A model generated the notes under the pieces. The model did no database searches. It had not been told where the DNA came from and saw only the letters and a program-made list of their open reading frames with translations. A DNA stretch of 64,000 nt from a virus: positions 1-64,000 of IMG/VR virus record IMGVR_UViG_3300033153_006492; one strand, written 5' to 3'. Each line of letters opens with the position of its first letter. The first letter of the stretch is position 1. The translations under genes were made by a program, and so were the position numbers. Shown in pieces: positions 1 through 46,532 of the stretch.

Positions 1-4
1 AAAT

Positions 5-76
5 GCTCCCGAAGCTTTAATGGTGAAGCAACGGACTTTTAATCCGTAGAATCTGGATCGTTACCAGACGGGAGTA
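5..76 (+). tRNA. tRNA-Lys(TTT)
   Basis: Cloverleaf; acceptor GCTCCCG/CGGGAGT, anticodon arm ACGGA-CTTTTAA-TCCGT; atypical T loop ATCGTTA. Confidence 0.85.
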
Positions 77-82
77 CAAAAT

Positions 83-155
83 GCTTCCCTATCCCAATGG
101 CAGAGGAGTCCGGCTTAGACCCGGTTCAGTCTCGGTTCAAATCCGAGGGGAAGTA
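83..155 (+). tRNA. tRNA-Leu(TAG), short variable loop
   Basis: Acceptor GCTTCCC/GGGAAGT, loop CTTAGAC, T loop TTCAAAT. Confidence 0.85.
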
Positions 156-166
156 CAAAAATTTAT

Positions 167-240
167 AGGTGATTAGTGTAGTTGGCCTACCACGTCGGTC
201 TCCAAAATCGAAAACACGGGTTCGAATCCTGTATCACCTG
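167..240 (+). tRNA. tRNA-Trp(CCA)
   Basis: Acceptor AGGTGAT/ATCACCT, loop CTCCAAA, G73. Confidence 0.9.
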
Positions 241-242
241 CT

Positions 243-306
243 AACGAGCCGAATGAATAGGATTATCCCTGAATAGATAAAACTCCTATTTGATTATTTG
301 TTCGTT
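243..306 (+). ncRNA. Y RNA-like gene 1 (Ro60-binding, minimal)
   Basis: AACGAGC[C]GAA / TTTGTTCGTT bulged-C helix; GCCGAATG motif; upper stem GAATAGGA/TCCTATTT followed by TTATC; U tail. Confidence 0.75.
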
Positions 307-315
307 TTTATAAAT

Positions 316-389
316 ACTCTCGTAGCTCAACTGGATAGAGTTCCTGATTACGAATCAGGCGGTTGAAGGTTCGAATCCTTTCGAGAGTA
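316..389 (+). tRNA. tRNA-Arg(ACG)
   Basis: Acceptor ACTCTCG/CGAGAGT, loop TTACGAA. Confidence 0.92.
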
Positions 390-390
390 C

Positions 391-478
391 AAATGAGCCG
401 AATGGTAATGGTTATCCCCTTACATAGAGATGGCTTACGGGTTGTGCCGGAGTTCCCATTATCAAAATTTGTTCATTT
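391..478 (+). ncRNA. Y RNA-like gene 2
   Basis: AAATGAGC[C]GAA / TTTGTTCATTT; upper stem GGTAATGG/CCATTATC; TTATC motif. Confidence 0.78.
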
Positions 479-483
479 ATTTT

Positions 484-556
484 GCGTCATTGGTGTTAGT
501 GGCTAGCATTTCAGACTTCCAATCTGACGGGGTCGGTTCGAATCCGACATGATGCT
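484..556 (+). tRNA. tRNA-Gly(TCC)
   Basis: Acceptor GCGTCAT/ATGATGC, loop CTTCCAA, U73. Confidence 0.92.
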
Positions 557-561
557 CAAAT

Positions 562-649
562 ACGAGCCGCTGAGTAAGATTATCGGTTAAAATTGGTTCG
601 AGTCCAATAGTCTCTACGGAGATTATGTTCTTACTCACTATTTGTTCGT
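562..649 (+). ncRNA. Y RNA-like gene 3 with T-arm module (YrlA-like)
   Basis: ACGAGC[C]G / TTTGTTCGT; upper stem TGAGTAAGA/TCTTACTCA; TTATC; internal T-arm ATTGG-TTCGAGT-CCAAT, then hairpin AGTCTC-TACG-GAGATT. Confidence 0.78.
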
Positions 650-677
650 TTTATTTAATTAAAATAAAGGAGAGGTT

Positions 678-842
678 ATGGAAACAAATCTTGTAGATTT
701 AGAACTTGAACTCAATATGGAAACAATGGCTTCATTAATACAAGCGTCAATTGATTCTGGAAAAGATGTTAATACATTAATTGTTGAAGCATTAGAATAC
801 TTTGTAGAGAACGAAAAAATTGAAAAAGATTCATCGAAGTAA
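678..842 (+). CDS. small hypothetical protein (54 aa), possibly ribbon-helix-helix
   Basis: AAGGAG RBS; METNLVDLELELNMETMASLIQ...; below ORF-track cutoff. Confidence 0.6.
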   Translation: METNLVDLELELNMETMASLIQASIDSGKDVNTLIVEALEYFVENEKIEKDSSK

Positions 843-846
843 ATAT

Positions 847-918
847 CCGCGTATAATTCAATGGTAGAAGCCCTGTCTTATATGCAGGTCGCTGAAGGTT
901 CGAATCCTTCTACGCGGA
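847..918 (+). tRNA. tRNA-Ile(TAT)
   Basis: Acceptor CCGCGTA/TACGCGG, arm CCTGT-CTTATAT-GCAGG, T loop TTCGAAT. Confidence 0.82.
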
Positions 919-920
919 CT

Positions 921-1114
921 TCTTCTGTCGTTTAATTTGTAAGACACGATGTTTTTAGATCGCCTTTGCTGTTTAATCAGCCGAATCTAAAGAAGAAATA
1001 AGTTAGGCTGTCGTGAAAACTTGAAAGTAATTCGGCCGGTTAAATGTTAATGAAATCAAGTGAATATCGCTGGCAAACCTTATGCGGAAGTTGGTTCAAA
1101 TCCAACTGGAAGGA
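921..1114 (+). ncRNA. tRNA-like RNA with ~140-nt insertion replacing the anticodon arm
   Basis: D-arm GTTT-AATTTGT-AAGAC, T-arm GTTGG-TTCAAAT-CCAAC, wobble-rich acceptor TCTTCTG/TGGAAGG; insert has CGATGTT/AATATCG helix. Confidence 0.6.
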
Positions 1115-1165
1115 CAAATTTCATCGACACGTTATTTTGATATGTAGATAACAGCGACACGTTAC

Positions 1166-1238
1166 GGGGCTATGGTAGTAATGGGAACTACGAGAGACTT
1201 GCAATCTTTAGTTCAGGGTTCGAATCCCTGTAGCTCCA
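1166..1238 (+). tRNA. tRNA-Ala(TGC)
   Basis: GGGGCTA/TAGCTCC with G3:U70, loop CTTGCAA. Confidence 0.92.
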
Positions 1239-1252
1239 CAATAAAATTAATT

Positions 1253-1329
1253 GGGGCACGGGACTGCAGTGGGGTGGTCACCTGACTTGCAATCAGGAAA
1301 GCAGCCGGGATCGTTCTTCGGGTGCTCCA
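1253..1329 (+). tRNA. tRNA-Ala(TGC), divergent copy
   Basis: GGGGCAC/GTGCTCC with G3:U70, loop CTTGCAA, atypical T loop. Confidence 0.8.
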
Positions 1330-1345
1330 CAATTAAGGAGGGTAC

Positions 1346-1558
1346 ATGGAATATAAATGGCGAGGCATGACATATCCAAAAATATTCACTAATAAATTAG
1401 TTCATTTTTTATGGAAACGATATTTGTGTCCACAAGAAAAACATCTGTTTGATGAAGTTGAAAGTGGAATAGGTGGTGGTGATATTGAACATTATCTTCA
1501 TTGTGATGCATGTGGTTTAATGGTTTACATTGATAAGGTGGAGGAAGACGACGAATGA
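1346..1558 (+). CDS. hypothetical protein (CxxC)
   Basis: AAGGAGG RBS; ORF track. Confidence 0.7.
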   Translation: MEYKWRGMTYPKIFTNKLVHFLWKRYLCPQEKHLFDEVESGIGGGDIEHYLHCDACGLMVYIDKVEEDDE

Positions 1559-1788
1559 GTATAAAAGTAAAAATTAGTATTACTGATATTAGTGTTACTG
1601 ATAATGAAGGTGATATAATAATTGAAGACTTAGAAATAGTAAATACTGGTCATGTGAAAAATGGAGAATTATTATATAGAATAAAGGGTGATAAATACAA
1701 TCACTTAGAAATATATCATAATAGAAAAGAATCTTGGAGTATTTTAATAGAAAAAGTATTAAACAAAATAAATGGCGATATAGCTTAA
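1555..1788 (+). CDS. hypothetical protein
   Basis: ATGA overlap with previous ORF; 3' end overlaps tRNA. Confidence 0.65.
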   Translation: MSIKVKISITDISVTDNEGDIIIEDLEIVNTGHVKNGELLYRIKGDKYNHLEIYHNRKESWSILIEKVLNKINGDIA

Positions 1789-1845
1789 CGGCAGAGTGAA
1801 CGGTTCATATCCGTTTAGGTATTGGTTCGAATCCAATTATCGCTA
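1774..1845 (+). tRNA. tRNA-CAT (Ile2 or elongator Met)
   Basis: GGCGATA/TATCGCT, loop TTCATAT. Confidence 0.85.
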
Positions 1846-1862
1846 CAAGAAAGGAAACCAGT

Positions 1863-2054
1863 ATGTTTTATTATGAGTTAGAATACTCAAATGGTGATAT
1901 TGAAAAAGTAAGTTATGAAACTGAAGAGGAAGCCAATTGGGCTTTTCATAATGCTGGTGATCATTTACTTGTAATTACACCAATTGATAAAGATGGAAAC
2001 GAAATTGATAAATATGGGAGTGTAGCTCAGAATAACGGTAGAGCTCAGGGGTGA
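1863..2054 (+). CDS. hypothetical acidic protein
   Basis: AAAGGA RBS; last ~13 codons run into tRNA-Phe. Confidence 0.6.
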   Translation: MFYYELEYSNGDIEKVSYETEEEANWAFHNAGDHLLVITPIDKDGNEIDKYGSVAQNNGRAQG

Positions 2055-2093
2055 AGTCCCTGGTAGTCGTCGGTTCGATCCCGACTACTCCCA
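2016..2093 (+). tRNA. tRNA-Phe(GAA)
   Basis: GGGAGTG/TACTCCC, arm CAGGG-GTGAAGT-CCCTG. Confidence 0.88.
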
Positions 2094-2104
2094 CAAAACA
2101 AACA

Positions 2105-2278
2105 AGCGATGTAGTGATACGGAAAGTATTCTCATTAATCTGTTGCAACGGATTATGAAAAGGATAATGTTTTGAGATAGCGTTGGGTCGACACGACAAA
2201 ATCATGTTTAATTATTCTGAATGCGATCACGCTCCCGTGCAAGGGAGAAATAGCAGGTTCGACTCCTGGCCGTCGCAA
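2105..2278 (+). ncRNA. tRNA-like RNA with ~107-nt insertion in the D loop
   Basis: Acceptor GCGATG/CGTCGC; D stem GTGAT(2114)/ATCAC(2226); arm CTCCC-GTGCAA-GGGAG (6-nt loop); T loop TTCGACT. Confidence 0.7.
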
Positions 2279-2284
2279 CTAAAT

Positions 2285-2395
2285 GGTGATATAGCTGTAA
2301 AGTCAGAGCTTTAAGCGGATGACGAAATAAGGATAACATCTTATTTTAGGAATAACAGCATGTTTATGTAGGTTCGAGTCCTTCTATCACCGCCA
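2285..2395 (+). ncRNA. tRNA-like RNA with expanded anticodon arm, encoded CCA
   Basis: Perfect acceptor GGTGATA/TATCACC-G-CCA, D arm, T loop TTCGAGT; ~60-nt middle region with AAATAAG/CTTATTT hairpin. Confidence 0.7.
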
Positions 2396-2397
2396 AT

Positions 2398-2470
2398 GGG
2401 ATTGTCGTCTAATAGAGAAGACGCCACCGATTGCAGGTGGAAACGAAGGATCATATCCCTTCCAATCTCA
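2398..2470 (+). tRNA. atypical tRNA (loop GATTGCA, nominal anticodon TTG)
   Basis: Cloverleaf GGGATTG/CAATCTC, CCACC-GATTGCA-GGTGG; lacks U33, non-canonical T loop. Confidence 0.6.
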
Positions 2471-2476
2471 CAAAAT

Positions 2477-2553
2477 GGAGCTGTGGTGTAACTGGTTAGC
2501 ACATCGCCCTGTCACGGCGAAGGCATTTGCGGGTTCGATCCCCGTCAGCTCCG
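2477..2553 (+). tRNA. tRNA-Asp(GTC)
   Basis: GGAGCTG/CAGCTCC-G, loop CTGTCAC. Confidence 0.92.
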
Positions 2554-2577
2554 CAAAATTTTTCTGGAGGAAACGTC

Positions 2578-2805
2578 ATGTCTGCGACAAAATTAATTGA
2601 AGTGAAAGTTTTAATGGAACAAGAAATGCTTGATAAATTAAATGGATTGGCGTCAATGATAGGAAAGAATCGTGATAAGGCTGTAACAGAAGCTATTAGT
2701 ATAGCACATGATTTAGTAGAAACGACGAAAAAGGAAAAGGGTAAAATTTTATTAGAATATCCTAACCATCGGATTGTAGAATTAACTTTAACTTTTTTGG
2801 AATAA
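2578..2805 (+). CDS. hypothetical protein, possibly ribbon-helix-helix DNA-binding
   Basis: GGAGG RBS before ATG 2578; beta-helix-helix pattern. Confidence 0.6.
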   Translation: MSATKLIEVKVLMEQEMLDKLNGLASMIGKNRDKAVTEAISIAHDLVETTKKEKGKILLEYPNHRIVELTLTFLE

Positions 2806-2808
2806 AAC

Positions 2809-2837
2809 TTGACAAGTAACATATTATTTCGTATCTT
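2809..2837 (+). promoter_or_regulatory. sigma70-type promoter
   Basis: TTGACA-17-TATCTT. Confidence 0.7.
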
Positions 2838-2875
2838 TCTGTGTTGGTGAAATTAAATAATAGAAGGAAAATGTT

Positions 2876-3031
2876 ATGGCTAATTATCGTAGTAAAAGTG
2901 GTTTTAATGGTAATCGTAGAAATAAAGGTACTAAAAAACTACAGTGGGTTATGAAGAATAAAAAGGACAAAGAACAACAAACGTATTATATAAAAAGACA
3001 AACAATTTCTGGTAATCGTGAGGAAATTTAA
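2876..3031 (+). CDS. small basic hypothetical protein (51 aa)
   Basis: AAGGA RBS; MANYRSKSGFNGNRRNKG... Confidence 0.5.
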   Translation: MANYRSKSGFNGNRRNKGTKKLQWVMKNKKDKEQQTYYIKRQTISGNREEI

Positions 3032-3331
3032 ATGATAAACTTAACAGAAAAAGAAAATAAGGTTTTGAAATATTTAGTTGCTGAAGGTCTTGAATGTATG
3101 GGCGGAAAGCAACCTACAGATTTAATTGAAGAAAATATGAGTTGGTTTGGAATTAAGGATATTATGTCTTTAGGTTTCAATCGACATCAAGCAGCTGGAC
3201 TAATGAGTAGCTTAAATGAAAAAGAAATGGTAATGGATACTGAAGGTGGAGTACCTGATTTAGATGGTAGAGTAACTTGGATTGTAACAGAAGATGGTAT
3301 TAATATCATTCAAAATTTGAAGGAAATGTAA
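3032..3331 (+). CDS. hypothetical protein, winged-helix-like
   Basis: LTEKENKVLKYL...GLMSSLNEKEMV...WIVTEDG pattern. Confidence 0.65.
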   Translation: MINLTEKENKVLKYLVAEGLECMGGKQPTDLIEENMSWFGIKDIMSLGFNRHQAAGLMSSLNEKEMVMDTEGGVPDLDGRVTWIVTEDGINIIQNLKEM

Positions 3332-3489
3332 ATGAGGTTATCTCAATATTTAGACGCAATGATAGTAAAAGAATTTCCTTCTTCGGCTGATTGGAAGACA
3401 AGGTATTCACATATTTCGAATACAGAAGAACTTAAATCCAATCGTCGTAAGTTAAAAATGTATAAAGATACGACTAAGAAAAAATAATT

Positions 3490-3574
3490 GGTACGGTGGG
3501 AGAGTGGTTAAATCCAGGGGTCTGTAAAACCTCCGCCTTTTCAGGCTACGTTGGTTCAAATCCAACCTGTACCA
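3490..3574 (+). tRNA. tRNA-Tyr(GTA)
   Basis: GGTACGG/CTGTACC, loop CTGTAAA, long variable arm. Confidence 0.92.
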
Positions 3575-3587
3575 CAAAGGTTCAAAT

Positions 3588-3659
3588 AAGGAAGTAGTAT
3601 AAGTAGTACGGTAGAAGCCGAGTCGATGACAGGTATAGGTTCAAATCCTATCTTCCTTA
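3588..3659 (+). ncRNA. tRNA-like RNA without a proper anticodon stem
   Basis: Perfect acceptor AAGGAAG/CTTCCTT and T-arm ATAGG-TTCAAAT-CCTAT; short D arm; unpaired anticodon region. Confidence 0.6.
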
Positions 3660-3670
3660 CTATAACAAAA

Positions 3671-3683
3671 TGTTCTTTGACAA
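3671..3683 (+). promoter_or_regulatory. boxA antitermination element
   Basis: TGTTCTTTGACAA inside tRNA cluster; second copy before tmRNA. Confidence 0.6.
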
Positions 3684-3696
3684 TATAAATTTTTAT

Positions 3697-3782
3697 GGGG
3701 TGATGACTGAATTGGCTAAGGTACGCGGCTGTAACCCGTTAGTCTCGCTGGACGAGTCAAGGTTCGAATCCTTGTCGCCCCA
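3697..3782 (+). tRNA. tRNA-Tyr(GTA), second copy
   Basis: GGGGTGA/TCGCCCC, loop CTGTAAC, long variable arm. Confidence 0.82.
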
Positions 3783-3862
3783 CTTTTTGTTTTCACTTGG
3801 GTTTGTTTAGAAAAATCAAACCTCTGCACATCGGTACTTATTAGAAATAATAAGGCCGATAT

Positions 3863-3934
3863 GGGGCTGTAGCTTAATGGTAGAGCGTCTCCCTGTCGAG
3901 GAGGAAGGTGTCGGTTCAAGTCCGATGGGTCTCG
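3863..3934 (+). tRNA. tRNA-Asp(GTC), second copy
   Basis: Loop CTGTCGA; weak acceptor stem; G73. Confidence 0.75.
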
Positions 3935-3961
3935 CAATATGTTGTAACTAAACAATTTTAT

Positions 3962-4040
3962 GGGTCTGTAGCAAATTACTGGCTTTGCAACTGGCTTTTA
4001 ACCAGTATAAATGTAGGTTCAATTCCTATCAGGCCCACCA
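3962..4040 (+). tRNA. tRNA-Lys(TTT), second copy
   Basis: GGGTCTG/CAGGCCC-A-CCA, loop CTTTTAA. Confidence 0.9.
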
Positions 4041-4059
4041 TAAAAAAAAAGAAGTATAT

Positions 4060-4130
4060 TGGCCTGTGGTGTAATGGAAGCACACCGCCCTTTGAAGGCG
4101 TTAGACATGGTTCGAGTCCATGCAGGCTAG
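4060..4130 (+). tRNA. tRNA-Gln(TTG)
   Basis: TGGCCTG/CAGGCTA-G, loop CTTTGAA. Confidence 0.9.
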
Positions 4131-4142
4131 CAAATGAAAAAT

Positions 4143-4217
4143 TAGCCGATGGTGAAGTGGTTTAACACGCCGGGCTCTGAACCCGGTATTTCGTTGGTTC
4201 GAATCCAACTCGGCTGG
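4143..4217 (+). tRNA. tRNA-Gln(CTG)
   Basis: TAGCCGA/TCGGCTG-G, loop CTCTGAA. Confidence 0.9.
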
Positions 4218-4219
4218 CT

Positions 4220-4359
4220 TTATGGTGGTGTAATATCATATGTAAGTAATTTGATGAATTCTTGAGGGAACGCTTGATGAAAAATGATGAAAACATATGA
4301 CAACAACACATTGCCCGTGAAGGGGTAACGCTACAAGTGTAAATCTTGTCCATAATCCA
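4220..4359 (+). ncRNA. tRNA-like RNA with ~74-nt D-loop insertion, encoded CCA
   Basis: TTATGG/CCATAA-T-CCA; D stem GTGT/ACAC enclosing TCATATG/CATATGA helix; arm TTGCC-CGTGAAGG-GGTAA; T-like arm ACAAG-TGTAAAT-CTTGT. Confidence 0.65.
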
Positions 4360-4362
4360 TAT

Positions 4363-4461
4363 AAGCGATATGTGCAGGTAGTTACCGTATGAATAACGTT
4401 TAACATATGGATAAATTTACTATACAAATAAACTGGCATCCCTTGATCAGGGTCGTCGCTT
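4363..4461 (+). ncRNA. unknown structured RNA
   Basis: Closing helix AAGCGAT/GTCGCTT, inner CCGTATG/CATATGG and CCCT/AGGG hairpins, U tail. Confidence 0.45.
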
Positions 4462-4486
4462 TTTACTTAAAATGAAAGGTTATGTT

Positions 4487-4654
4487 ATGATGGGTCACAA
4501 AGGTCACATAAAGACTATTGATGAAGATGATGCCTTAACTCGTGTATGTCGTTTGGATTTGTATAAACCAGGACAACGTAAGGCTTATAAACAGGCTTAT
4601 AATCGTCGTATTCGTCGACAAATGAAACAAAAAGATTATGACTCAATGTCGTAA
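4487..4654 (+). CDS. small basic hypothetical protein
   Basis: AAAGG RBS; C-terminal RKAYKQAYNRRIRR. Confidence 0.65.
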   Translation: MMGHKGHIKTIDEDDALTRVCRLDLYKPGQRKAYKQAYNRRIRRQMKQKDYDSMS

Positions 4655-4660
4655 TTAAAT

Positions 4661-4733
4661 TCCAGCATAGCTCAGTTGGTAGAGCAGGTGACTGTTAATC
4701 ACTTTGTCGTAGGTTCAAGTCCTACTGCTGGAG
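4661..4733 (+). tRNA. tRNA-Asn(GTT)
   Basis: TCCAGCA/TGCTGGA-G, loop CTGTTAA. Confidence 0.95.
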
Positions 4734-4745
4734 CAAACAACAAAT

Positions 4746-4936
4746 ACCGATATAGCTCAGTTGGTAGAGCGCCACCGCGAAAGGTGGATTCACGAAGTAT
4801 TATGATGTTCCTGCAGGGATTGATTGATGATTAGTGATAGAGGATTTAATCCTGAACACATAATAATTGTACAATAAAAATGTTAGTATGGAGATAAAAA
4901 TCTGAAGAGTCGTAGGTTCAAGTCCTGCTGTCGGTA
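4746..4936 (+). ncRNA. tRNA-like RNA with ~120-nt variable-arm insertion
   Basis: ACCGATA/TGTCGGT; canonical D arm GCTCAGTTGGTAGAGC; CCACC-GCGAAA-GGTGG (6-nt loop); canonical T arm. Confidence 0.72.
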
Positions 4937-5044
4937 CTATACAATGAAAGCATAATTATATATGACCCGATGCCTTATCCGGGTGGAAGATTAATCATTC
5001 TGAGTAAGATGCATACGAAAGGAAATGGTAGATAAGGTAGATAT

Positions 5045-5118
5045 TCATGGGTAGTATTAATGGTTAAAACGTCGGTCTGTTAAACCGAGAGATCTCAGTT
5101 CGAATCTGAGCCCATGAG
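5045..5118 (+). tRNA. tRNA-Asn(GTT), second copy
   Basis: TCATGGG/CCCATGA-G, loop CTGTTAA. Confidence 0.85.
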
Positions 5119-5130
5119 CAAAAAATAAAT

Positions 5131-5202
5131 GGTCGCGTAACTCAATGGTAGATTATCCGTCTGATACGCGGAAGGTTGTTGGTTCGACTCCAACCGCGAC
5201 TA
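5131..5202 (+). tRNA. tRNA-Ile(GAT)
   Basis: GGTCGCG/CGCGACT, loop CTGATAC. Confidence 0.9.
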
Positions 5203-5225
5203 CAAAAAGAAATATGTCAATATAT

Positions 5226-5300
5226 GGCGAGAAAAACGAATGGTGAGTGAGCGGTGTTACATACCGCGTGTCCTCGGTTCGAATCCGAGTCTCGCTACCA
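5226..5300 (+). tRNA. tRNA-Val(TAC)
   Basis: GGCGAGA/TCTCGCT-A-CCA, loop GTTACAT. Confidence 0.85.
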
Positions 5301-5319
5301 ATTTTTAAGGAGCATCTAT

Positions 5320-5523
5320 ATGGGTGAATTATATAATCGCATATTTGTAGATAAAGATAATGGAATAAGTTCTATGTCACAAAGAGATAGAGATGTAACA
5401 AAAGCCTTTTCTTTAGTTTCACATGGAATTTTACGATTAAAGGGTTACATAATAACTAAAGATGAATTCCAAGATTTTGAATTTTGGTTTAATACATTAA
5501 AAAACCAAGTTAGTAAGGAGTAA
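5320..5523 (+). CDS. hypothetical protein
   Basis: AAGGAG RBS before ATG 5320. Confidence 0.65.
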   Translation: MGELYNRIFVDKDNGISSMSQRDRDVTKAFSLVSHGILRLKGYIITKDEFQDFEFWFNTLKNQVSKE

Positions 5524-5582
5524 CTATTTATGGGTATGGTAGAATATTTCCCTTAGTGTTAGTTTAACTAAGGAGAATCAAA

Positions 5583-5807
5583 ATGAAAGAAACATTAAAA
5601 ACTACCACTAATAATAGTGTATTCAAAAAACTTCGTACTCGACAAGGCAAATATATTTGTCTTATTTGTTTTAAGAGAAGTAATCGTGGTGATATATATG
5701 CAGGTTGTGCATATATGTTTAGACCTGACAGAACACGGAAAAGTTGGAAACATTATCGCAAAAATCAATATAAAACTGTGGAGAATACATATGGCGAAGA
5801 AACTTAA
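5583..5807 (+). CDS. small basic Cys-containing protein
   Basis: AAGGAG RBS; CxxC...C, RKSWKHYRKNQYK. Confidence 0.7.
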   Translation: MKETLKTTTNNSVFKKLRTRQGKYICLICFKRSNRGDIYAGCAYMFRPDRTRKSWKHYRKNQYKTVENTYGEET

Positions 5808-5937
5808 TGGATTTGTATGTGATGTATGTAGAAAATTTTTTAGAAGTGATGAACCAATTACTGGACAAGGAAGAAAACGCAATCTTCATTTTTGTACATT
5901 AAAATGTAAGGCGAAGTGGGTAAAGAAAACTGTTTGA
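5791..5937 (+). CDS. small zinc-finger protein (TRASH/MYM-like)
   Basis: GGAG RBS; CDVC...HFCTLKC. Confidence 0.65.
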   Translation: MAKKLNGFVCDVCRKFFRSDEPITGQGRKRNLHFCTLKCKAKWVKKTV

Positions 5938-5980
5938 AATATAAGGAACATATTTCAGTAATTAGCGTTATATATAATAT

Positions 5981-6053
5981 GGTGCGGTAACTCAATTGGT
6001 AGAGTGTCGGTGTGAAGTACCGATGGTAGTCAGTTCGATTCTGACCCGTACCA
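5981..6053 (+). tRNA. tRNA-Phe(GAA), second copy
   Basis: GGTGCGG/CCGTACC, loop GTGAAGT. Confidence 0.88.
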
Positions 6054-6054
6054 C

Positions 6055-6177
6055 AAAAATCGTTGACCGGATAGTAGAGCGAATCGTATGTCGGCTATCT
6101 ACCGTCCATAGTTCAAGAGAAAAGCGTATCTTTTCAATTCCTTCAAGAGTAAGACTACGTGAGAAGGAACGATTTTT
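6055..6177 (+). ncRNA. unknown structured RNA
   Basis: 10-bp closing helix AAAAATCGTT/AACGATTTTT with three internal hairpins; directly after tRNA-Phe. Confidence 0.45.
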
Positions 6178-6199
6178 ATTTTTAATATAAGGAGTTATA

Positions 6200-6463
6200 A
6201 TGAATCCTGATAGATCATATTTTGGAAAAATGTTTAAGCCTGAAGTATTTAATCTTACACCTGATAATTGTGATAACGATGAAGAATTTGTTGAACTTGT
6301 TACAGAGGAAACTTGGAATTTAGATGAGTGGACTCCTGAAGGTATAATGATGTTAAAACATTTTGTTTTTAAAACAGTAACAAAAGATGTACCGGAAAAA
6401 CATGATATAGATATTGATTATTTACTGATTTTAATTAAAGAACATTGGGATAAAATTAAATGA
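6200..6463 (+). CDS. hypothetical protein
   Basis: AAGGAG RBS; ORF track. Confidence 0.7.
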   Translation: MNPDRSYFGKMFKPEVFNLTPDNCDNDEEFVELVTEETWNLDEWTPEGIMMLKHFVFKTVTKDVPEKHDIDIDYLLILIKEHWDKIK

Positions 6464-6473
6464 TGGAGGTTAC

Positions 6474-6701
6474 ATGACTGGATTAACTGATTTTTTAAAA
6501 GATTTGAAAGGAAGTAAAATAGTTGGGCTTTTATTTGGTAGTGGTATTTTAGTATTTTTGTTTTTTGCGTTAGCTATCATATTATCATTATTTAAAGGTG
6601 GATTTTTTATTACACTCGCAGTTTTTATGATTATATCTGGTTGTGTATCACTTATATTCTTTTTTATTGCAATTGGAATGATATACGACGAAATGAATTG
6701 A
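6474..6701 (+). CDS. hypothetical membrane protein
   Basis: GGAGG RBS; two hydrophobic segments. Confidence 0.7.
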   Translation: MTGLTDFLKDLKGSKIVGLLFGSGILVFLFFALAIILSLFKGGFFITLAVFMIISGCVSLIFFFIAIGMIYDEMN

Positions 6702-6702
6702 T

Positions 6703-7032
6703 ATGAACACAATTACAGTAAATGGTCGTCGTTATTCTGGAGATACAATAGTGGTTGGTTCCGGTGAAATTCGTATTGATGGAAACACCATTAAAACTCC
6801 AGACGAAAAAGAAATTAACATTCATGTTGATGGTAATATGAAAAAATTAGATATTATGTCGTGTAACAATCTCACTATAAAGGGTGATGTTGATAATGTG
6901 GAATCTCAAAGTGGTGATATAAATGTTATAGGAAATGTAACTGGTGATGTTGAAACTATGTCTGGTGATGTTCATGTCTCCGGAGGTATAGGTGGTGGTG
7001 TTGAAACTATGACTGGTAACATTACACGTTAA
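6703..7032 (+). CDS. beta-solenoid repeat protein (xTxSGDV repeats)
   Basis: ESQSGDI/ETMSGDV/ETMTGNI repeats. Confidence 0.65.
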   Translation: MNTITVNGRRYSGDTIVVGSGEIRIDGNTIKTPDEKEINIHVDGNMKKLDIMSCNNLTIKGDVDNVESQSGDINVIGNVTGDVETMSGDVHVSGGIGGGVETMTGNITR

Positions 7033-7039
7033 AAAAATT

Positions 7040-7115
7040 GGGAGTATAGCAAATTATTGGTCTTGCAGTAGGCTCTTAACCTTCATAAATGTCGGTTCGA
7101 TTCCGACTGCTCCCA
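7040..7115 (+). tRNA. tRNA-Lys(CTT)
   Basis: GGGAGTA/TGCTCCC, loop CTCTTAA. Confidence 0.88.
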
Positions 7116-7225
7116 CAATCCTGTGGTGGATCGTTACCACCGTCCAGTTGTCAATCCTCGAGGTAGACTTTGGTGTGAAGCTGACAAAGAATATGGTATT
7201 CGCAGGTACTTTTTGTAAAATAAAT

Positions 7226-7254
7226 TTGACTTTCTATTTTAATTGGTTTATATT
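7226..7254 (+). promoter_or_regulatory. sigma70-type early promoter
   Basis: TTGACT-17-TATATT-CTG. Confidence 0.7.
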
Positions 7255-7282
7255 CTGGTAAAGAAATAATGAAAGGTTACAA

Positions 7283-8137
7283 ATGGAAGTTCAAAGTTTA
7301 TCAATTTTAATTCCCGCAGGATGCCCAAACAGGTGTCCTTTCTGTGTTTCTCACATGAATAAAGAAAACAAAAAATTTAGAACAAATGTAAATATTGATT
7401 TGGATTCTGTCAAACGAAGAATGGAATTTGCTCGCGACAATGGAACAAATACTTTAATGATTACATCAACTGGTGAAGCATTAGAAAATATGGATTATGT
7501 GATTCATATTCTCGATATAAATAAAAGATTGCCGTCTCCTTTTAAATGGATTGAATTACAGACAAGTGGTGTTGGTTTAATGGATTGTATAAATGAATAT
7601 GGTTATAGTATGAATAAGATTAATACGATTAGCATCAGTGTTGTCGACATATTCAGTTCTGAATATAATTCTAAATGGATGAAAATGCCTGCTGGTCGTG
7701 AAGTTGATTTGGATGAATTGGTTAAGTTTTTGAAAGAACGAAATTTTAATGTTCGTATATCAATTAATTTAACTAACATATATAATAATATTGCTGTTGA
7801 AGATCTGTATCAACGACTGGGAGAATTGGATGTTGACCAAGTAACATTTCGGAAATTATATTTGAATGGTAATGGAAGCAAACAAGATAACTGGATTGAA
7901 AAAAATAAACTTGATTATGAAACTTTCAATGATATAATTGAATATGTAGAAGATAATGGAAACGCTCTTGAATTATTACCATTTGGCGCAATGAAATATT
8001 CGTTGAATGGAATATCAACAGTAATTGATGACGACTGTATGAGTAAAGAAGTTAGAAATGTGTTGAAGTATTTAATTATCCGTGAGAATGGAAAATTATA
8101 TTCTCGTTGGGATGATAAAGGTTCTTTAATTTTTTAG
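7283..8137 (+). CDS. radical SAM protein
   Basis: CPNRCPFC (CxxxCxxC) and TGE motif; ends in TAG. Confidence 0.85.
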   Translation: MEVQSLSILIPAGCPNRCPFCVSHMNKENKKFRTNVNIDLDSVKRRMEFARDNGTNTLMITSTGEALENMDYVIHILDINKRLPSPFKWIELQTSGVGLMDCINEYGYSMNKINTISISVVDIFSSEYNSKWMKMPAGREVDLDELVKFLKERNFNVRISINLTNIYNNIAVEDLYQRLGELDVDQVTFRKLYLNGNGSKQDNWIEKNKLDYETFNDIIEYVEDNGNALELLPFGAMKYSLNGISTVIDDDCMSKEVRNVLKYLIIRENGKLYSRWDDKGSLIF

Positions 8138-8149
8138 AAAGGTTATGTT

Positions 8150-8353
8150 ATGAACGAATATAAAATAATTACTGCAAGTTCTGCAGGTGAATTAACAAAA
8201 AAAGTAAATAAAATCATGATGGAAGAACATTTTACGCCGAATGGTTCACATCATGTAATTGAAATACATCGTCAAAATCGTTATAGGGGAACTGAACTTA
8301 TTGATACGGTTATTACACGAGAGTATTCACAAACAATGAAATTGAAAATTTAA
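8150..8353 (+). CDS. small hypothetical protein (DUF1737-like)
   Basis: YKIITA...LTKKVN...YSQTM pattern. Confidence 0.6.
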   Translation: MNEYKIITASSAGELTKKVNKIMMEEHFTPNGSHHVIEIHRQNRYRGTELIDTVITREYSQTMKLKI

Positions 8354-8598
8354 AAGGAATGTGATGTGAAAACGGATAGTTTCTTGGTGGACGGGACACG
8401 GCCAGAACCCAATAACAAATGCTTCACCTGATAACTATTTGAGAAACTGGCGCATCGATCTGTCTTAGAATAATTTCATGTGAGGTTCACATAATATTAT
8501 TTGTAGAGTAGCTCTCAATAAAAGACAATTTAGTGGACAACCTTAATAACCACATTAAGATCGCTCTGGAAAGAAATTACTCTCACATCACATTTTTT
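8354..8598 (+). ncRNA. unknown ~245-nt multibranch RNA
   Basis: Perfect 12-bp closing helix AATGTGATGTGA/TCACATCACATT with nested helices; fills the whole intergenic gap. Confidence 0.6.
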
Positions 8599-8624
8599 AT
8601 TGATAACTAATTTAAAGGAATGAT

Positions 8625-9011
8625 ATGGATAATATTTTAACTGATTTGTACAAAGCACTTTTGTATAAAGATTATACATTAAAGGATGTTTTTATTGGTT
8701 TCAAAAATAGAACGACAAATACACATTATAGGTTTCCAAAACGAACTGATTATAAATATTTTAAACGTATAACATATGTGTATGATTGGTTTTTTGTGTG
8801 GGCTGCTGTATCCAAAGTATCATATGGAATTGTAATATCATTGAGTTTAATGGATATAGTTATGATATGTTTTGGGAACTGGTATTTTATGATATTTTTA
8901 GGAATGAAAGCTTTTTATTTATATGATCTTTATCGCTATGTTTGGTTAAATAAATTAGATGAAAATATTGCTCCTAATTTGTTACAAGATTGGGATGGAC
9001 AATTAATATAA
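8625..9011 (+). CDS. hypothetical membrane protein
   Basis: RBS; hydrophobic C-terminal half. Confidence 0.65.
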   Translation: MDNILTDLYKALLYKDYTLKDVFIGFKNRTTNTHYRFPKRTDYKYFKRITYVYDWFFVWAAVSKVSYGIVISLSLMDIVMICFGNWYFMIFLGMKAFYLYDLYRYVWLNKLDENIAPNLLQDWDGQLI

Positions 9012-9028
9012 ATTGAAGGGAAAAGGTT

Positions 9029-10189
9029 ATGATACATTCGATGTTAGATAATGATTTGTATAAGTTTTCAATGCAACAGGCAGTAATGAAATTATATCCC
9101 AGTGCAAAAGTGAAATATAAATTCATTGATCGAGGTGCTACGTATTTTCCTGAAAAAATGGTCGCTGAATTGAAACAGGCTGTTAAGGATATGGAAGGTT
9201 TGTATCTTACTTTTAATGAACGTAAGTTTTTAGAAGAAAAGGTATATTTCTTTAATCCTGTTTATGTTGATTTCTTAAATGGTTATCGTTATAAATCTGA
9301 TGAAGTTGATATTAACTGGGATTCTGGCGAACTACAAATTACCATTGAAGGATATTGGTTTCGTACAATCTTATGGGAAGTACCTTTAATGGCTTTGGTT
9401 TCTGAATTATATTTTAAACATACCGGTGCTTCAGTTATCTGGAGCGATTTAGATATTCGCAACGAACATAAGGCTGAAGATTTTAAGGAATTGGATGTTA
9501 AGATTGCTGATTTTGGAACTCGTCGTCGGTATTCATATAAAAGCCAACAAAGATTAGTTGAAGAATTTAATAAATGGAATTTCTTTGTTGGAACAAGTAA
9601 TATGCATTTCGCAGAAAAATACAACTTAACTCCAATTGGAACACAGGCTCACGAATGGTTTATGTTTCATGCTGCTAAGTATGGATTTCATCAAGCTAAT
9701 TCTATTTCGTTGGGTCGTTGGGTTGATGTATATAATGGTGATTTGGGGATTGCATTGTCTGATACTTTTACAACTGAATCATTTTTCAAATCGTTTGATA
9801 CATTGTATGCTAAATTATTTGATGGTGTTCGTCACGATTCAGGTGACGCTATCAAATTTGGAAATGAAGTTGAAAAACATTATGAAAAGTTAGGGATTCC
9901 ACCTACCAGCAAAACAATTGTATTTTCTGATGGATTGGACTTTGATGAAGTACAACGTATAGAATCATATGGCTGGAAAATAAAACGGTCATATGGTATT
10001 GGAACTTGGTTATCAAATGATATTCCTGACGTTCATCCGCTAAATATGGTAATTAAAATGGTAGCTGCTAAACCAAGTGGTGAAGACGAATGGATTAACA
10101 CAATAAAGTTAAGCGACGATGAAGGAAAACATACTGGAAATCGGAAAACAATTGAATTAGCAAAAAATGTACTTAATATAAAGGAGTAA
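9029..10189 (+). CDS. pncB: nicotinate phosphoribosyltransferase
   Basis: DNDLYKFSM, DFGTRRRYS, GTQAHEW, RHDSGD, VFSDGL, YGIGT motifs. Confidence 0.95.
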   Translation: MIHSMLDNDLYKFSMQQAVMKLYPSAKVKYKFIDRGATYFPEKMVAELKQAVKDMEGLYLTFNERKFLEEKVYFFNPVYVDFLNGYRYKSDEVDINWDSGELQITIEGYWFRTILWEVPLMALVSELYFKHTGASVIWSDLDIRNEHKAEDFKELDVKIADFGTRRRYSYKSQQRLVEEFNKWNFFVGTSNMHFAEKYNLTPIGTQAHEWFMFHAAKYGFHQANSISLGRWVDVYNGDLGIALSDTFTTESFFKSFDTLYAKLFDGVRHDSGDAIKFGNEVEKHYEKLGIPPTSKTIVFSDGLDFDEVQRIESYGWKIKRSYGIGTWLSNDIPDVHPLNMVIKMVAAKPSGEDEWINTIKLSDDEGKHTGNRKTIELAKNVLNIKE

Positions 10190-10193
10190 TTTA

Positions 10194-10397
10194 ATGAAAC
10201 TTGAAATGAGATCAATACTGGTTATTATTGTAATTGTATTAGTTTTTGTAATGTCGTGGGCGTCATTCAATCACATTGACAATTCATATATAATGAAAGA
10301 CGACATTGAACTTGAACGATTACAGTCAGAAAATGATAGTTTGAAAACTGTCATTAAAGATTTACAGCCTAAAGACAAAGGAGATACTGATGAGTAA
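10194..10397 (+). CDS. hypothetical membrane-anchored protein
   Basis: N-terminal TM segment, short coiled coil. Confidence 0.6.
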   Translation: MKLEMRSILVIIVIVLVFVMSWASFNHIDNSYIMKDDIELERLQSENDSLKTVIKDLQPKDKGDTDE

Positions 10398-11799
10398 TTT
10401 ACAGCAAATTGGTGAAAACATTGCCGACAAACTCGGTCATGAAGAAACCATTGTAATGAGAACTAACGATGCTCGCTATCGTTATTATCAGTGGTTACGA
10501 GATTGGTATGGTATGGGTCAACAAGAAGCAACGAATAAATGTCCATTCTATCAATTTATGTTTTGGGGTAGTTTAATAATGTTGGTTTCTATTATTCCAA
10601 TTATTTTATTGAAAATCACTGAATGGGTTGTTCTTAAACCGTTAACATGGGTTGTTCCTGATGTAATTGATGATATATACAAAAAAATAATTAATCCCAG
10701 TAAAATGATAGCGGCCTGGCTTTTAACGTTTGTTTTGTTTGTTGTTGCTGTGGTTATAACTCTATTTGTTTATGGCGAACTTCTTTACTGGATAGGATTT
10801 GGAATTCTTTTTGTTTATGCTATTCCGTATGCTATTATATGGGCGATTGGAACTGGGCTTGTGGTGGTTGTAACACTTGGATTACCTATGATGTTTACTG
10901 GTATTGGGATAGGATTCAGTTATTTGTTCAATGGTATCGGATTAGTTCCCTGGGGTCAAATGTTTATATATTTAGGGCTTGGGATAGCATTTTTATTTGT
11001 GTTTCTGGTTTTATTGGTATCAATATATCAACTTACTATTCTTTTATTTGAATCTAAATTTTCTAATTGGGTTATTAAAAAGTCATGTATTATTCGTGAA
11101 AATAGTATTGGAAAAAATAAAGAACGTAGAGAACGAATTATAGCTAATCAAGAATTAAAAGAACAAGCTCAATTAAAATGGAATTTGGAACATAAAGATG
11201 AACTTGAACTTGAAAGAATAGAAAGCGAAGCACGATGTAAGGAACGAGATGAATCTATTGAACAATGGGTAGAATCTATTATTGGATTGTTTGGGTTTGT
11301 TTGGTCTGGTTTGAAAATTTTTCCAGGTTACCCTTTTATTTGGGCTTGGTTACTCATTAAACAAATTGGACTTGGCATTTGGTGGGTTATGAAAAAAATT
11401 GGTGATTTTTGTGTTATCGTATGGTCACTTGCTACTGAGACTGTTAGCAATCATTGTCCTCCAATTGATTTTATATTTAATGTAAATGATGAAGGTTTAT
11501 TAATCGCACAACGTAAATACGATGGTTATGTATTTCTTTGTGAAAACGAAGAACGTACTATTGTTATTGAAGAATTACCAGACACATTTGATATTAAACC
11601 AGGATTGAAAGATGGTTTAAAGTGTCGTATCCAATGCACTATTTGTACTAAAGATGTTGAGACAGCGCAATATGATAAAGCTAATAACTGGAGTAGCGTA
11701 TATGAAAGTCTTATACATCCATCACCTGTGTATGAAATTCAATCGTTGGAATATGTTAAAGTACCAAAAAAACGAAAAAGTAAGAAGGTAACAAAATGA
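10390..11799 (+). CDS. polytopic membrane protein, unknown function
   Basis: 469 aa, multiple TM segments and a charged linker. Confidence 0.8.
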   Translation: MSNLQQIGENIADKLGHEETIVMRTNDARYRYYQWLRDWYGMGQQEATNKCPFYQFMFWGSLIMLVSIIPIILLKITEWVVLKPLTWVVPDVIDDIYKKIINPSKMIAAWLLTFVLFVVAVVITLFVYGELLYWIGFGILFVYAIPYAIIWAIGTGLVVVVTLGLPMMFTGIGIGFSYLFNGIGLVPWGQMFIYLGLGIAFLFVFLVLLVSIYQLTILLFESKFSNWVIKKSCIIRENSIGKNKERRERIIANQELKEQAQLKWNLEHKDELELERIESEARCKERDESIEQWVESIIGLFGFVWSGLKIFPGYPFIWAWLLIKQIGLGIWWVMKKIGDFCVIVWSLATETVSNHCPPIDFIFNVNDEGLLIAQRKYDGYVFLCENEERTIVIEELPDTFDIKPGLKDGLKCRIQCTICTKDVETAQYDKANNWSSVYESLIHPSPVYEIQSLEYVKVPKKRKSKKVTK

Positions 11800-12053
11800 T
11801 AAGATTTTTCAAAACATATATGGGTATCTTTAAGGTGCCCATATTTTGGGGTGTTGTTATATTCTTTTTCCTTACAGCGATATTGGGAAACGCTTCCGGC
11901 CCATTAATTTTACTTTTCATAAAATCTGTGGCGTTGGCAATGATAATGGCTTTTTTGGCTGTTGTGATGAAATTTCTTGAACAAAAATATGGAAAAGGTA
12001 ATAATTTTCTGGAACAAAAATATGGAAGAACAGGGAACAAAAATAAAAAATAA
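11796..12053 (+). CDS. hypothetical membrane protein
   Basis: Two TM segments; duplicated FLEQKYG tail. Confidence 0.6.
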   Translation: MIRFFKTYMGIFKVPIFWGVVIFFFLTAILGNASGPLILLFIKSVALAMIMAFLAVVMKFLEQKYGKGNNFLEQKYGRTGNKNKK

Positions 12054-12974: not shown

Positions 12975-13049
12975 CTGCTTGTAGCTCAGCCCGGTAGAGC
13001 GGAGAACTCTAAATTCTCGCCAGCGTCGGTTCGAATCCGACCAAGCGGA
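12975..13049 (+). tRNA. amber suppressor tRNA (CTA)
   Basis: Canonical cloverleaf: CTGCTTG/CAAGCGG-A, D arm GCTCAGCCCGGTAGAGC, GAGAA-CTCTAAA-TTCTC, GTCGG-TTCGAAT-CCGAC. Confidence 0.92.
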
Positions 13050-13074
13050 CGACAAGGATAGGAGAATAAATACA

Positions 13075-16634: not shown

Positions 16635-16958
16635 GTCCTCGTGGCCGAATAACACGTATAGGCGTGTAAGGCATTGTAGCCCCAGCTGAAAAGCTTGGGG
16701 AGCGAGTTACGAACTTGGTGCGGATAAGGTGGCGACGTTCTGGAAGTGAGATCAACTTTTGGGGTTGAAATAAACAGAAACGAGCGCACGATTGCAGAAA
16801 TCCCCTAATACTTGGCATATAGCTACTATCTGTGATTATGAAGGTACAATCAATCCTTCCACTATTTAAAGATAAATTTCGACGGAGATTTATTGGTGTG
16901 ACTGAAAAATCCAAGTCCAGGCGTACGTTTGTGGGTAGATGCGAATCCCACCGAGGCA
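16635..16958 (+). ncRNA. ~324-nt RNA with tRNA-like ends and ~250-nt structured insert
   Basis: CCTCG/CGAGG acceptor, Leu/Ser-type D arm GCC-GAAT...A-GGC, T stem GTGGG/CCCAC with enlarged loop; several internal hairpins. Confidence 0.62.
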
Positions 16959-46168: not shown

Positions 46169-46504
46169 GGGAGCGTTCATGGATTCGATCAGAGGATAAA
46201 AGTAAATGACAGCAATACGTTGGGAAACGTAAAATCTAATAAAGAATAATTAACAACTCATATCAACTTGCTGCGTAATTAATTGCGTAGTCGTCAATCC
46301 ATCTTTTGTCGAGAGGTGGAAATTGACGCCGTATTCGACAAGAACTTTTGGTGGTAGGTCAAAACAAAAATATCTACTCGTGGGTAATAAATTTTCTTGT
46401 TTATTTTTAGTTTATTTTACACGTTAAAATTTAAGAATAAACTATTATTGTAGAAGTCATTTAAGTTTGCTTTTGAGACGCGGGCTCGATTCCCGCCGCT
46501 TCCA
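46169..46504 (+). ncRNA. ssrA: tmRNA
   Basis: GGGAGCG/CGCTTCC-A with G3:U70, GGATTCGA, T arm GCGGG-CTCGATT-CCCGC; tag frame (A)NNSYQLAA* at 46252-46278. Confidence 0.93.
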
Positions 46505-46532
46505 CTTTTAATTTAATACAAAGGAGAATTGA

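Follow-up and report, generated by a model that had tools for sequence, protein, structure and literature searches.

Expanded tRNA-like genes without a working anticodon loop in the tRNA array of an uncultured large phage

We analysed the first 64 kb (hereafter the window) of a 78.7-kb IMG/VR virus record, IMGVR_UViG_3300033153_006492, which is estimated to be 37% complete. Positions 1-7200 hold a plus-strand array of transfer RNA (tRNA) genes, 20 of which are called by ARAGORN, and inside this array, on the same strand, lie five oversized tRNA-like elements, here designated c1 to c5 (Table 1), each with 35-125 extra bases. An earlier note on this DNA had described the five as a family of tRNA frames carrying large insertions in different arms, and the present analysis follows up that description.

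The five elements share one build. Both folding and direct reading place in every element an acceptor stem that is followed two bases downstream by a D stem of 4-5 bp, and a 5-bp T stem with a 7-nucleotide (nt) loop directly before the 3′ acceptor strand. With the 3′ half of each element held fixed, we calculated the chance, at local composition, of acceptor and D-stem strands of the observed quality occurring within 16 offsets of the expected start, and this closure probability (closure P) ranged from 2.0e-4 to 6.5e-4 per element. A strict GG-TTCRA-NN-CC T arm is present in c1, c2, c3 and c5 but not in c4; about 0.3 such motifs are expected by chance per window strand, by our own arithmetic, the shuffles having used a looser motif. 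Canonical orphan T arms are concentrated within the tRNA array, the elements start 0-11 nt past the preceding gene, a spacing equal to that among ordinary tRNA genes, and the 3′ context of c1, A73-C-AAA, is that of canonical tRNAs. Overall, the closure probabilities, the concentration of orphan T arms, the tRNA-like spacing and the 3′ context of c1 identify the five elements as real tRNA frames, beyond chance. The frames described in the earlier note are thus present, and its statement that acceptor and T arms are kept holds in that all five frames close, with the reservation that the T loop of c4 is non-canonical. No sequence similarity was found among the inserts of the five, so that they constitute a class and not a sequence family.

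As the earlier note also anticipated, tRNA scanners miss or mislabel these genes. ARAGORN with default settings called none of the five, and its intron or low-threshold modes gave arbitrary labels (Val-AAC for c3, Leu-TAG for c5 and Lys-TTT for c1). Against the Rfam tRNA model RF00005, only c3 passed the gathering threshold of 29 bits, with 31.4 bits; c1, c2, c4 and c5 gave no match to this model at E<=1.

The added sequence occupies different arms in different elements (Table 1). In c2 and c4 the D loop holds the insert, and in c5 the variable arm does, exactly as had been proposed. For c1 and c3, both assigned an insert in the anticodon arm, the assignment needs amendment: c1 indeed carries a 41-nt hairpin in this position (hairpin A) but has a second expansion, a long helix in the variable-arm position (helix B), and in c3 the middle does replace the anticodon arm, although a collapsed remnant, AAC-AGCAU-GUU, persists with about 36 extra bases between it and the D arm. 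Two genes had been credited with an encoded CCA. That of c3 is unambiguous (G73-CCA), whereas in c4 a 7-bp acceptor in tRNA register starts at 4219, has a U-U mismatch at 1:72 and leaves the CCA one base off register. Across the array, N73-C-A-A-A rather than an encoded CCA follows most tRNA genes, and CCA is encoded in register only at 2285-2395, 3962-4040 and 5226-5300.

Table 1. Coordinates and features of the five expanded elements, their component parts and normal-sized tRNA-like genes of the same array
Feature	Position	Strand	Description
c1	921-1115	+	195 nt; acceptor 921-927/1107-1113; A73 at 1114; D arm 930-945; closure P 4e-4
c1 hairpin A	953-993	+	41 nt in anticodon-arm position; near-invariant between two phages, including AUCAGCCGAAUCU; folded alone, z -2.9
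c1 helix B	999-1082	+	Variable-arm position; 999-1013 pairs with 1068-1082; non-conserved cap 1014-1067; 4 pairs changed on both sides between window and G001
c1 T arm	1089-1107	+	GUUGG-UUCAAAU-CCAAC
c2	2106-2278	+	173 nt; acceptor 2106-2112/2270-2276 (6/7 pairs); D stem 2114-2118/2226-2230; T arm 2253-2269 (UUCGACU); closure P 2e-4
c2 insert	2119-2225	+	107 nt replacing D loop inside D stem GUGAU/AUCAC; 36% GC; fold z -1.3; no homologue in G001-G004
c2 anticodon-position hairpin	2232-2247	+	CUCCC-GUGCAA-GGGAG; 6-nt loop
c3	2285-2395	+	111 nt; acceptor 2285-2291/2385-2391 (7/7 pairs); G73, CCA 2393-2395; T arm 2368-2384; closure P 6e-4
c3 middle	2310-2367	+	Replaces anticodon arm
c4	4219-4359	+	~140 nt; acceptor 4220-4225/4350-4355 (6 Watson-Crick pairs; U-U at 4219/4356); D stem 4228-4231/4306-4309; T-like arm 4333-4349 (UGUAAAU); closure P 4e-4
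c4 insert	4232-4305	+	74 nt replacing D loop inside D stem GUGU/ACAC; 28% GC; fold z -1.3; no homologue in relatives
c4 anticodon-position hairpin	4311-4328	+	UUGCCC-GUGAAG-GGGUAA; 6-nt loop
c5	4746-4937	+	192 nt; acceptor 4746-4752/4929-4935 (7/7 pairs); canonical D arm 4755-4770; T arm 4912-4928; closure P 6.5e-4
c5 anticodon-position hairpin	4772-4787	+	CCACC-GCGAAA-GGUGG; 6-nt loop
c5 insert	4788-4911	+	124 nt in variable loop; 31% GC; fold z +0.2; no homologue in relatives
tRNA-like gene	1253-1330		G3-U70 and UGC loop kept; T loop abnormal
tRNA-like gene	2016-2094		GAA loop; D loop 12-13 nt; ~84% conserved in G001
tRNA-like gene	2398-2472		UUG without U33; T loop abnormal
tRNA-like gene	3588-3660		Rfam tRNA model 43.2 bits; Arg (ccg) by ARAGORN only at lowered threshold
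tRNA-like gene	5226-5300		Resembles tRNA-Val (UAC); odd D arm; CCA encoded

None of the five elements possesses a 7-nt anticodon loop. The loops of c2, c4 and c5 have six nucleotides, that of c4 closing with one pair more than in the earlier 8-nt reading, and c1 and c3 lack an anticodon hairpin altogether, this being defined as a 5-bp stem with a 7-nt loop bearing U33 and R37. Moreover, ARAGORN assigns different anticodons to the two orthologues of c1 described below (Lys-UUU and Ile-UAU). Because of the short loops, the missing hairpins and the discordant anticodons of c1, the five elements are unable to decode; the earlier note had thought this likely for the three with non-7-nt loops, and the point stands with the loop of c4 corrected to six. 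The consensus G-Y-G-M-A-R fits all three hexaloops of the window as well as that of a similar element in the related phage G004 (GUGAAG, locus L019 near 5666, minus strand), and no other G-Y-G-M-A-R hairpin in the window or in the related phage loci has a comparably G+C-rich stem or a tRNA-like frame. Three of these four hexaloops read G-Y-GAA-R and contain a GAA triplet of the Phe type, in a loop shortened by one base.

Parentage was examined by aligning the frames, with their inserts removed, to the tRNAs of the same array. c3 is identical to tRNA-Met 1774 at 47 of 61 positions and retains CAU inside its collapsed arm. c4 matches tRNA-Gln 4060 at 47 of 70 positions; the two have in common GUGGUGUAAU, a GUGU/ACAC D stem and the greater part of the anticodon arm, and the anticodon-position loop of c4 is that of tRNA-Gln shortened by one base. 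Of 75 aligned positions, c5 has 53 identical to the neighbouring tRNA-Asn (4661-4734), and the D arm and T-arm region do not differ. Since the de-inserted frames align in this way, c3, c4 and c5 are remodelled local copies of tRNA-Met, tRNA-Gln and tRNA-Asn, respectively, whose helices were kept. At least four of the five T-stem pairs of c4 differ from those of its parent tRNA, and the stem is still fully Watson-Crick; likewise, the acceptor of c5 pairs at all seven positions although four pairs differ from tRNA-Asn, three in both bases. Such maintenance of the helices is hard to reconcile with neutral decay.

A second line of evidence comes from related phages. Using the radical SAM gene beside the array as search bait, we recovered 16 loci, among which only those of G001 and G004 are close. 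G001 (IMGVR_UViG_3300017971_000200) is the nearest record, with 62% protein identity in this gene, and its array comprises about 40 tRNA genes. Five contigs (the longest of 137,876 bp) carry a radical SAM protein identical to that of the window, and about 15 relatives show 60-68% identity. An orthologue of c1 lies in G001 at L018:8825-9018 on the minus strand, with a mean column identity of 82%, within the range of orthologous tRNAs between the two phages (75-87%). The RNAalifold consensus of the two c1 sequences contains 40 pairs, and all 40 are paired in both. Both partners differ in seven of these pairs, of which helix B contributes four, the acceptor stem two and hairpin A one. As a control, the 3′ partners were slid by 1-3 columns, which left only 29-52% of cells paired and 0-2 double changes. 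Taken together, the compensatory changes in c1 relative to its orthologue, and in c5 and c4 relative to their parent tRNAs, support a tRNA frame that has been maintained and is not decaying.

c1 differs in this respect from its companions. No orthologue or homologue of c2-c5 was found in G001, G002, G003 or G004, so that nothing in the compared sequences shows these four to predate the present lineage. G001 and G004 have insert-bearing tRNA-like genes of their own, four and one respectively, with inserts unrelated to those of the window, and orphan canonical T arms occur in every related dense tRNA array among those compared. From these unrelated inserts and orphan T arms, the class is seen to be recurrent, with fast turnover of its members. 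Wider searches added little. Megablast against INPHARED phages returned generic tRNA matches only, and an open reading frame (ORF) from within the array found one distant locus when used as a query. Pattern scans of viral contigs for c1, c5 and the element at 2016-2094 gave only G001 or chance matches in GC-rich coding DNA, and one metagenome scan with a loose pattern gave 120 chance matches and no homologue. G001 also encodes a 91-nt tRNA-Cys (GCA) with a long type-II-like variable arm, unusual for tRNA-Cys (locus L020, minus strand, 5042-5132 counted on the reverse complement); comparison shows no relation between it and c2.

The earlier note had suggested that the tRNA frame serves as a chassis for cargo RNAs and had proposed insert homology and covariation as a check. 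Both hold for c1, with its maintained frame, conserved insert and doubly changed pairs, and neither extends to the inserts of c2-c5. These are 28-36% G+C, compared with 33% for the window, and hence AT-rich like the rest of the genome, and their folding energies fall within 1.4 standard deviations of dinucleotide shuffles; together with the missing homologues in the nearest relatives, this makes the cargo idea weak for c2-c5. The only insert part that folds beyond shuffles is hairpin A of c1 (z -2.9). Since only the c1 insert is conserved, c1 alone seems to carry a functional cargo, an inserted domain that is probably under selection. Several other roles for the inserts were considered and rejected. 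They do not represent a repeated mobile element, as they share no similarity and none is repeated elsewhere; as antisense regulators of phage genes they show only chance 12-15-mer matches in the window; their counts of promoter and terminator motifs are not above those of shuffles. No insert matched an Rfam family.

In our view, c1-c5 are probably non-decoding RNAs that descend from tRNA genes, and T4 species 1 RNA and T5 RNA1, RNA2 and RNA3 are of their kind. A copy of a tRNA gene of the array, the step for which c3, c4 and c5 provide the evidence, would then lose its working anticodon loop and expand within a loop, with the helices of the frame all kept paired during remodelling. The products would be co-transcribed with the neighbouring tRNAs on the plus strand and may be excised by ribonuclease P (RNase P) and the tRNA 3′-end enzymes, because the 7-bp acceptor stacked on the 5-bp T stem, the part that those enzymes read, is intact. 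CCA would be added where it is not encoded, and the tRNA frame would yield a stable, defined RNA that persists. In c2-c5 the inserts may behave as fast-evolving expansion segments, and only the frame is demonstrably maintained. The half of the tRNA kept here is the part read by processing enzymes, EF-Tu, many toxins and surveillance proteins. For this reason, these RNAs most likely act not on the ribosome but through the tRNA top half, mimicking a tRNA to bind proteins. A more ambitious version, which we regard as unlikely in its full extent, would make c1-c5 and their counterparts in related phages a selected toolkit of top-half mimics: tRNA copies with a disabled anticodon loop, marked by the G-Y-G-M-A-R hexaloop, and a lineage-specific loop expansion. 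As decoys or adaptors, these would engage defence proteins of the host that bind tRNA, or else the Ro60/RNA-surveillance module that the phage itself encodes. If this were true, the T4/T5-type tRNA-like stable RNAs would at last have a function.

Several observations weigh against derivation of selected, non-decoding RNAs from tRNA genes and speak instead for decaying pseudogenes, that is, duplicates with junk insertions and loop deletions that would still be excised but inactive. c2-c5 have no orthologues in G001-G004, their inserts are AT-rich with near-random folding energies, and the lack of homology between the inserts of different phages implies high turnover. The frames also have small defects: the T loop of c4 lacks U55 and C56, c2 has a mismatch in its acceptor (6 of 7 pairs) and pairs only 4 of 5 positions in its T stem, and c3 has a weak D stem (3 of 4 pairs) besides its collapsed anticodon arm. 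Furthermore, the covariation in c1 comes from two sequences only, the same two from which the structure was derived. On the other hand, neutral decay should break helices, yet at least 20 Watson-Crick pairs survive in c4 and c5 although their stems differ from the parents at most positions. The conservation of c1 with its seven double compensatory changes, and a hexaloop consensus common to all three short loops and the G004 element, are likewise unlike random decay, and we think it improbable that the five are pseudogenes. Even less can be said for ordinary tRNA genes whose introns are removed to give working tRNAs, a reading that we consider very nearly untenable. With its intron option, ARAGORN can be made to fit c1, c3 and c5 as tRNAs containing introns, and Lak megaphage tRNAs have been reported with "enigmatic introns" (PMC6784885). 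However, no group I, group II or other ribozyme family was matched in positions 1-12000 by Rfam models at E<=1. In c2 and c4 the added sequence sits in the D loop, and excising the insert from c2, c4 or c5 leaves a hexaloop in the anticodon position just as before; c3 has a collapsed anticodon arm, and the two c1 orthologues differ in what would be the anticodon loop. Removal of the insert restores a decoder in none of the five; intron removal, which the earlier note had named as an outcome that would overturn its interpretation, finds no support in the sequence.

The remaining alternative is that the elements are tRNA mimics acting as decoys or sponges, whose acceptor/T-arm half binds a host defence nuclease, a toxin or another tRNA-binding protein, possibly including the phage Ro60 system. 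Anticodon nucleases read the anticodon loop, which is exactly the part that is lost; the lost loops make the elements a poor decoy for such nucleases. On the supporting side, the tRNA half that is retained is what most tRNA-binding proteins read, Asn, Gln and Met tRNAs are among the parents, and the phage encodes Ro60 (17142-18830) and, in the same array, Y-like RNAs. Phage tRNAs counter tRNA-cleaving defences, and an overexpressed phage tRNA gave partial protection of host tRNA (PMC13096335), which also counts in favour of decoys. Nevertheless, the Ro60 motif GNCGAAN0-1G is found on the 5′ strand of the terminal stem in none of the five, the GCCGAAUC of c1 lying on the 3′ strand of an internal hairpin, and none of the five matches the YrlA model of Rfam. 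A decoy or sponge function for the set is therefore, in our estimation, distinctly doubtful, and derivation from tRNA genes as non-decoding RNAs is the explanation that we favour.

The surroundings of the elements contain further unusual RNA genes. Beyond the ARAGORN calls, the Rfam tRNA model adds three normal-sized odd tRNAs and one oversized tRNA in positions 1-7200. Five normal-sized non-canonical tRNA-like genes are skipped by ARAGORN at default settings (Table 1). A segment of about 320 nt (16635-16958), situated between tRNA-Met 16529 and the final Y-like element, matches no Rfam family. It shows CCUCG/CGAGG pairing like that of an acceptor stem, GUGGG...CCCAC resembling a T arm, and GGCCGAAU...GGC, into which a hairpin is inserted, resembling a D arm, and may belong to the c1-c5 class as a far larger representative. 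Small ORFs are closely interleaved with the tRNA genes: one at 1555-1788 overlaps the tRNA at 1774-1846 by 15 nt, another at 1863-2054 overlaps the tRNA-like gene at 2016-2094 by 39 nt, and several others stop 2-4 nt upstream of a tRNA. These overlaps and the tight spacing suggest that the 3′ ends of messenger RNAs are set by tRNA processing. An amber-suppressor tRNA (anticodon CTA) is encoded at 12975-13050. Further along the contig are genes for a radical SAM enzyme, a nicotinate phosphoribosyltransferase and an RNase T-like exonuclease, and baseplate genes show that this is a tailed phage. A neighbouring 469-residue protein (10390-11799) has no recognisable family.

Among known RNAs, transfer-messenger RNA (tmRNA) resembles the five elements in that an acceptor stem and a T arm are kept and the rest is replaced by a very large sequence. 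The phage has its own tmRNA at 46169-46507 (Rfam, 110.8 bits). c1-c5 are not tmRNAs: RF00023 has no match in positions 1-12000, and the elements have no reading frame and no G3-U70, the pair 3:70 read from the sequence being U-A, G-C, U-A, U-A and C-G in c1 to c5, respectively.

Y RNAs with a tRNA-like domain (YrlA, RF02553; Yrn1) are another comparison: they too are non-decoding tRNA mimics, and this phage encodes a Ro60 orthologue, with TROVE and vWA domains. The Ro60 site of Y RNAs is GNCGAAN0-1G, Yrn1 of D. radiodurans has been depicted with an "anticodon" stem of 5 bp and six loop nucleotides, and in M. smegmatis RNase P cleaves YrlA, to which CCA is added (Chen et al. 2014, PMC4201824). 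In contrast to the window elements, none of which has it, Y RNAs possess a Ro60-binding terminal stem, and YrlA is a permuted tRNA whose RNA ends lie at the anticodon side. With the Ro60-site motif absent from all five in that position, we rejected c1-c5 as Y RNAs. The AGCCGAAU of c1 was rejected as a Ro60 site because the word is common in the window and its pairing is unlike that of the Y-like stems. The sole RF02553 match, at 4704-4771, reached 23.2 bits where the cut-off is 69 and covers a T arm together with the D arm of the gene that follows; mimicry of YrlA by two adjacent tRNAs is a known artefact (PMC4201824). Y-like spacer RNAs do occur between tRNA genes at 243-312, 392-480 and 559-652, and others lie upstream of ro60. 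The three share a terminal helix in which 5′-A(A/C)GAG(C)CGAA pairs with UUUGUUCGUU around a bulged C; those at 243-312 and 392-480 carry GCCGAAUG, which fits GNCGAAN0-1G, and that at 559-652 contains a canonical T arm, ATTGG-TTCGAGT-CCAAT. Homologues of these RNAs are found in G001 (L018 near 11261, 11028 and 10494, minus strand).

Oversized tRNAs with "enigmatic introns" have been described in Lak megaphages (Devoto et al. 2019, PMC6784885). Like c1-c5, they are oversized genes in the tRNA clusters of huge phages, seen only by relaxed tRNA prediction, with inserts that are conserved within a lineage and unexplained. They differ in being read as introns in typable tRNAs, whereas removing the inserts of c1-c5 gives no decoder.

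The nearest counterparts are in classical phages, and to this extent the idea is not new: T4 species 1 RNA and T5 RNA1, RNA2 and RNA3 are annotated examples of the same build. Such tRNA-like stable RNAs have long been annotated in the T4 and T5 tRNA clusters with no function assigned, and are skipped by tRNA finders. In T5 (AY543070, misc_RNA), RNA1 (144 nt) and RNA2 (125 nt) are annotated as "tRNA-like stable RNA with unknown functions" and RNA3 (73 nt), which has a 6-nt loop and an encoded CCA, as "putative tRNA-like RNA". Like c1-c5, they lie on the same strand amid tRNA genes, and in T5 also amid small ORFs. They fold with an acceptor stem, a D arm, an expanded middle (RNA1 and RNA2) and canonical T arms (GAAGG-UUCAACU-CCUUC and GCAGG-UUCGAAU-CCUGU). 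The T5 expansions are in the anticodon and variable region, unlike the window, where two elements have 74-107 nt in the D loop and one has 124 nt in the variable loop, and the T5 RNAs are annotated as stable RNAs, whereas c1-c5 are known here from sequence alone. T4 species 1 RNA (rnaC, AF158101 70908-71046; 139 nt) lies at the end of the T4 tRNA cluster with rnaD adjoining, and its function is likewise unknown. It folds with a terminal stem containing two U-U mismatches, two long hairpins and a canonical T arm (CCGGG-UUCGAAU-CCCGG); the rnaD fold has no T arm. No sequence homology links c1-c5 to the T4 and T5 RNAs, the only matches being of 13-25 nt in generic T and D arms, and no Rfam family matches T4 rnaC or rnaD or T5 RNA1-3. 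What they share is a same-strand place in a phage tRNA cluster, abutting tRNA genes, and an acceptor-like terminal stem and T arm around an altered interior with no usable anticodon, the T loop of c4 deviating. Membership of this class is defined by build, not by descent.

Compared with these precedents, the window shows the class to be abundant in an uncultured large phage, 7 kb of which contain five expanded members and no fewer than five odd ones of normal size. It presents members born from neighbouring tRNA genes, helices kept by compensatory change while loops expand, and in c1 one conserved member with a testable structure, and it places the class beside a phage Ro60 gene, Y-like RNAs, a tmRNA and a suppressor tRNA. 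A function, once found, would explain a widespread and ignored set of phage genes. At present, c1-c5 establish no new principle but form a well-documented new instance of the known, unexplained class to which the T4 and T5 RNAs belong.

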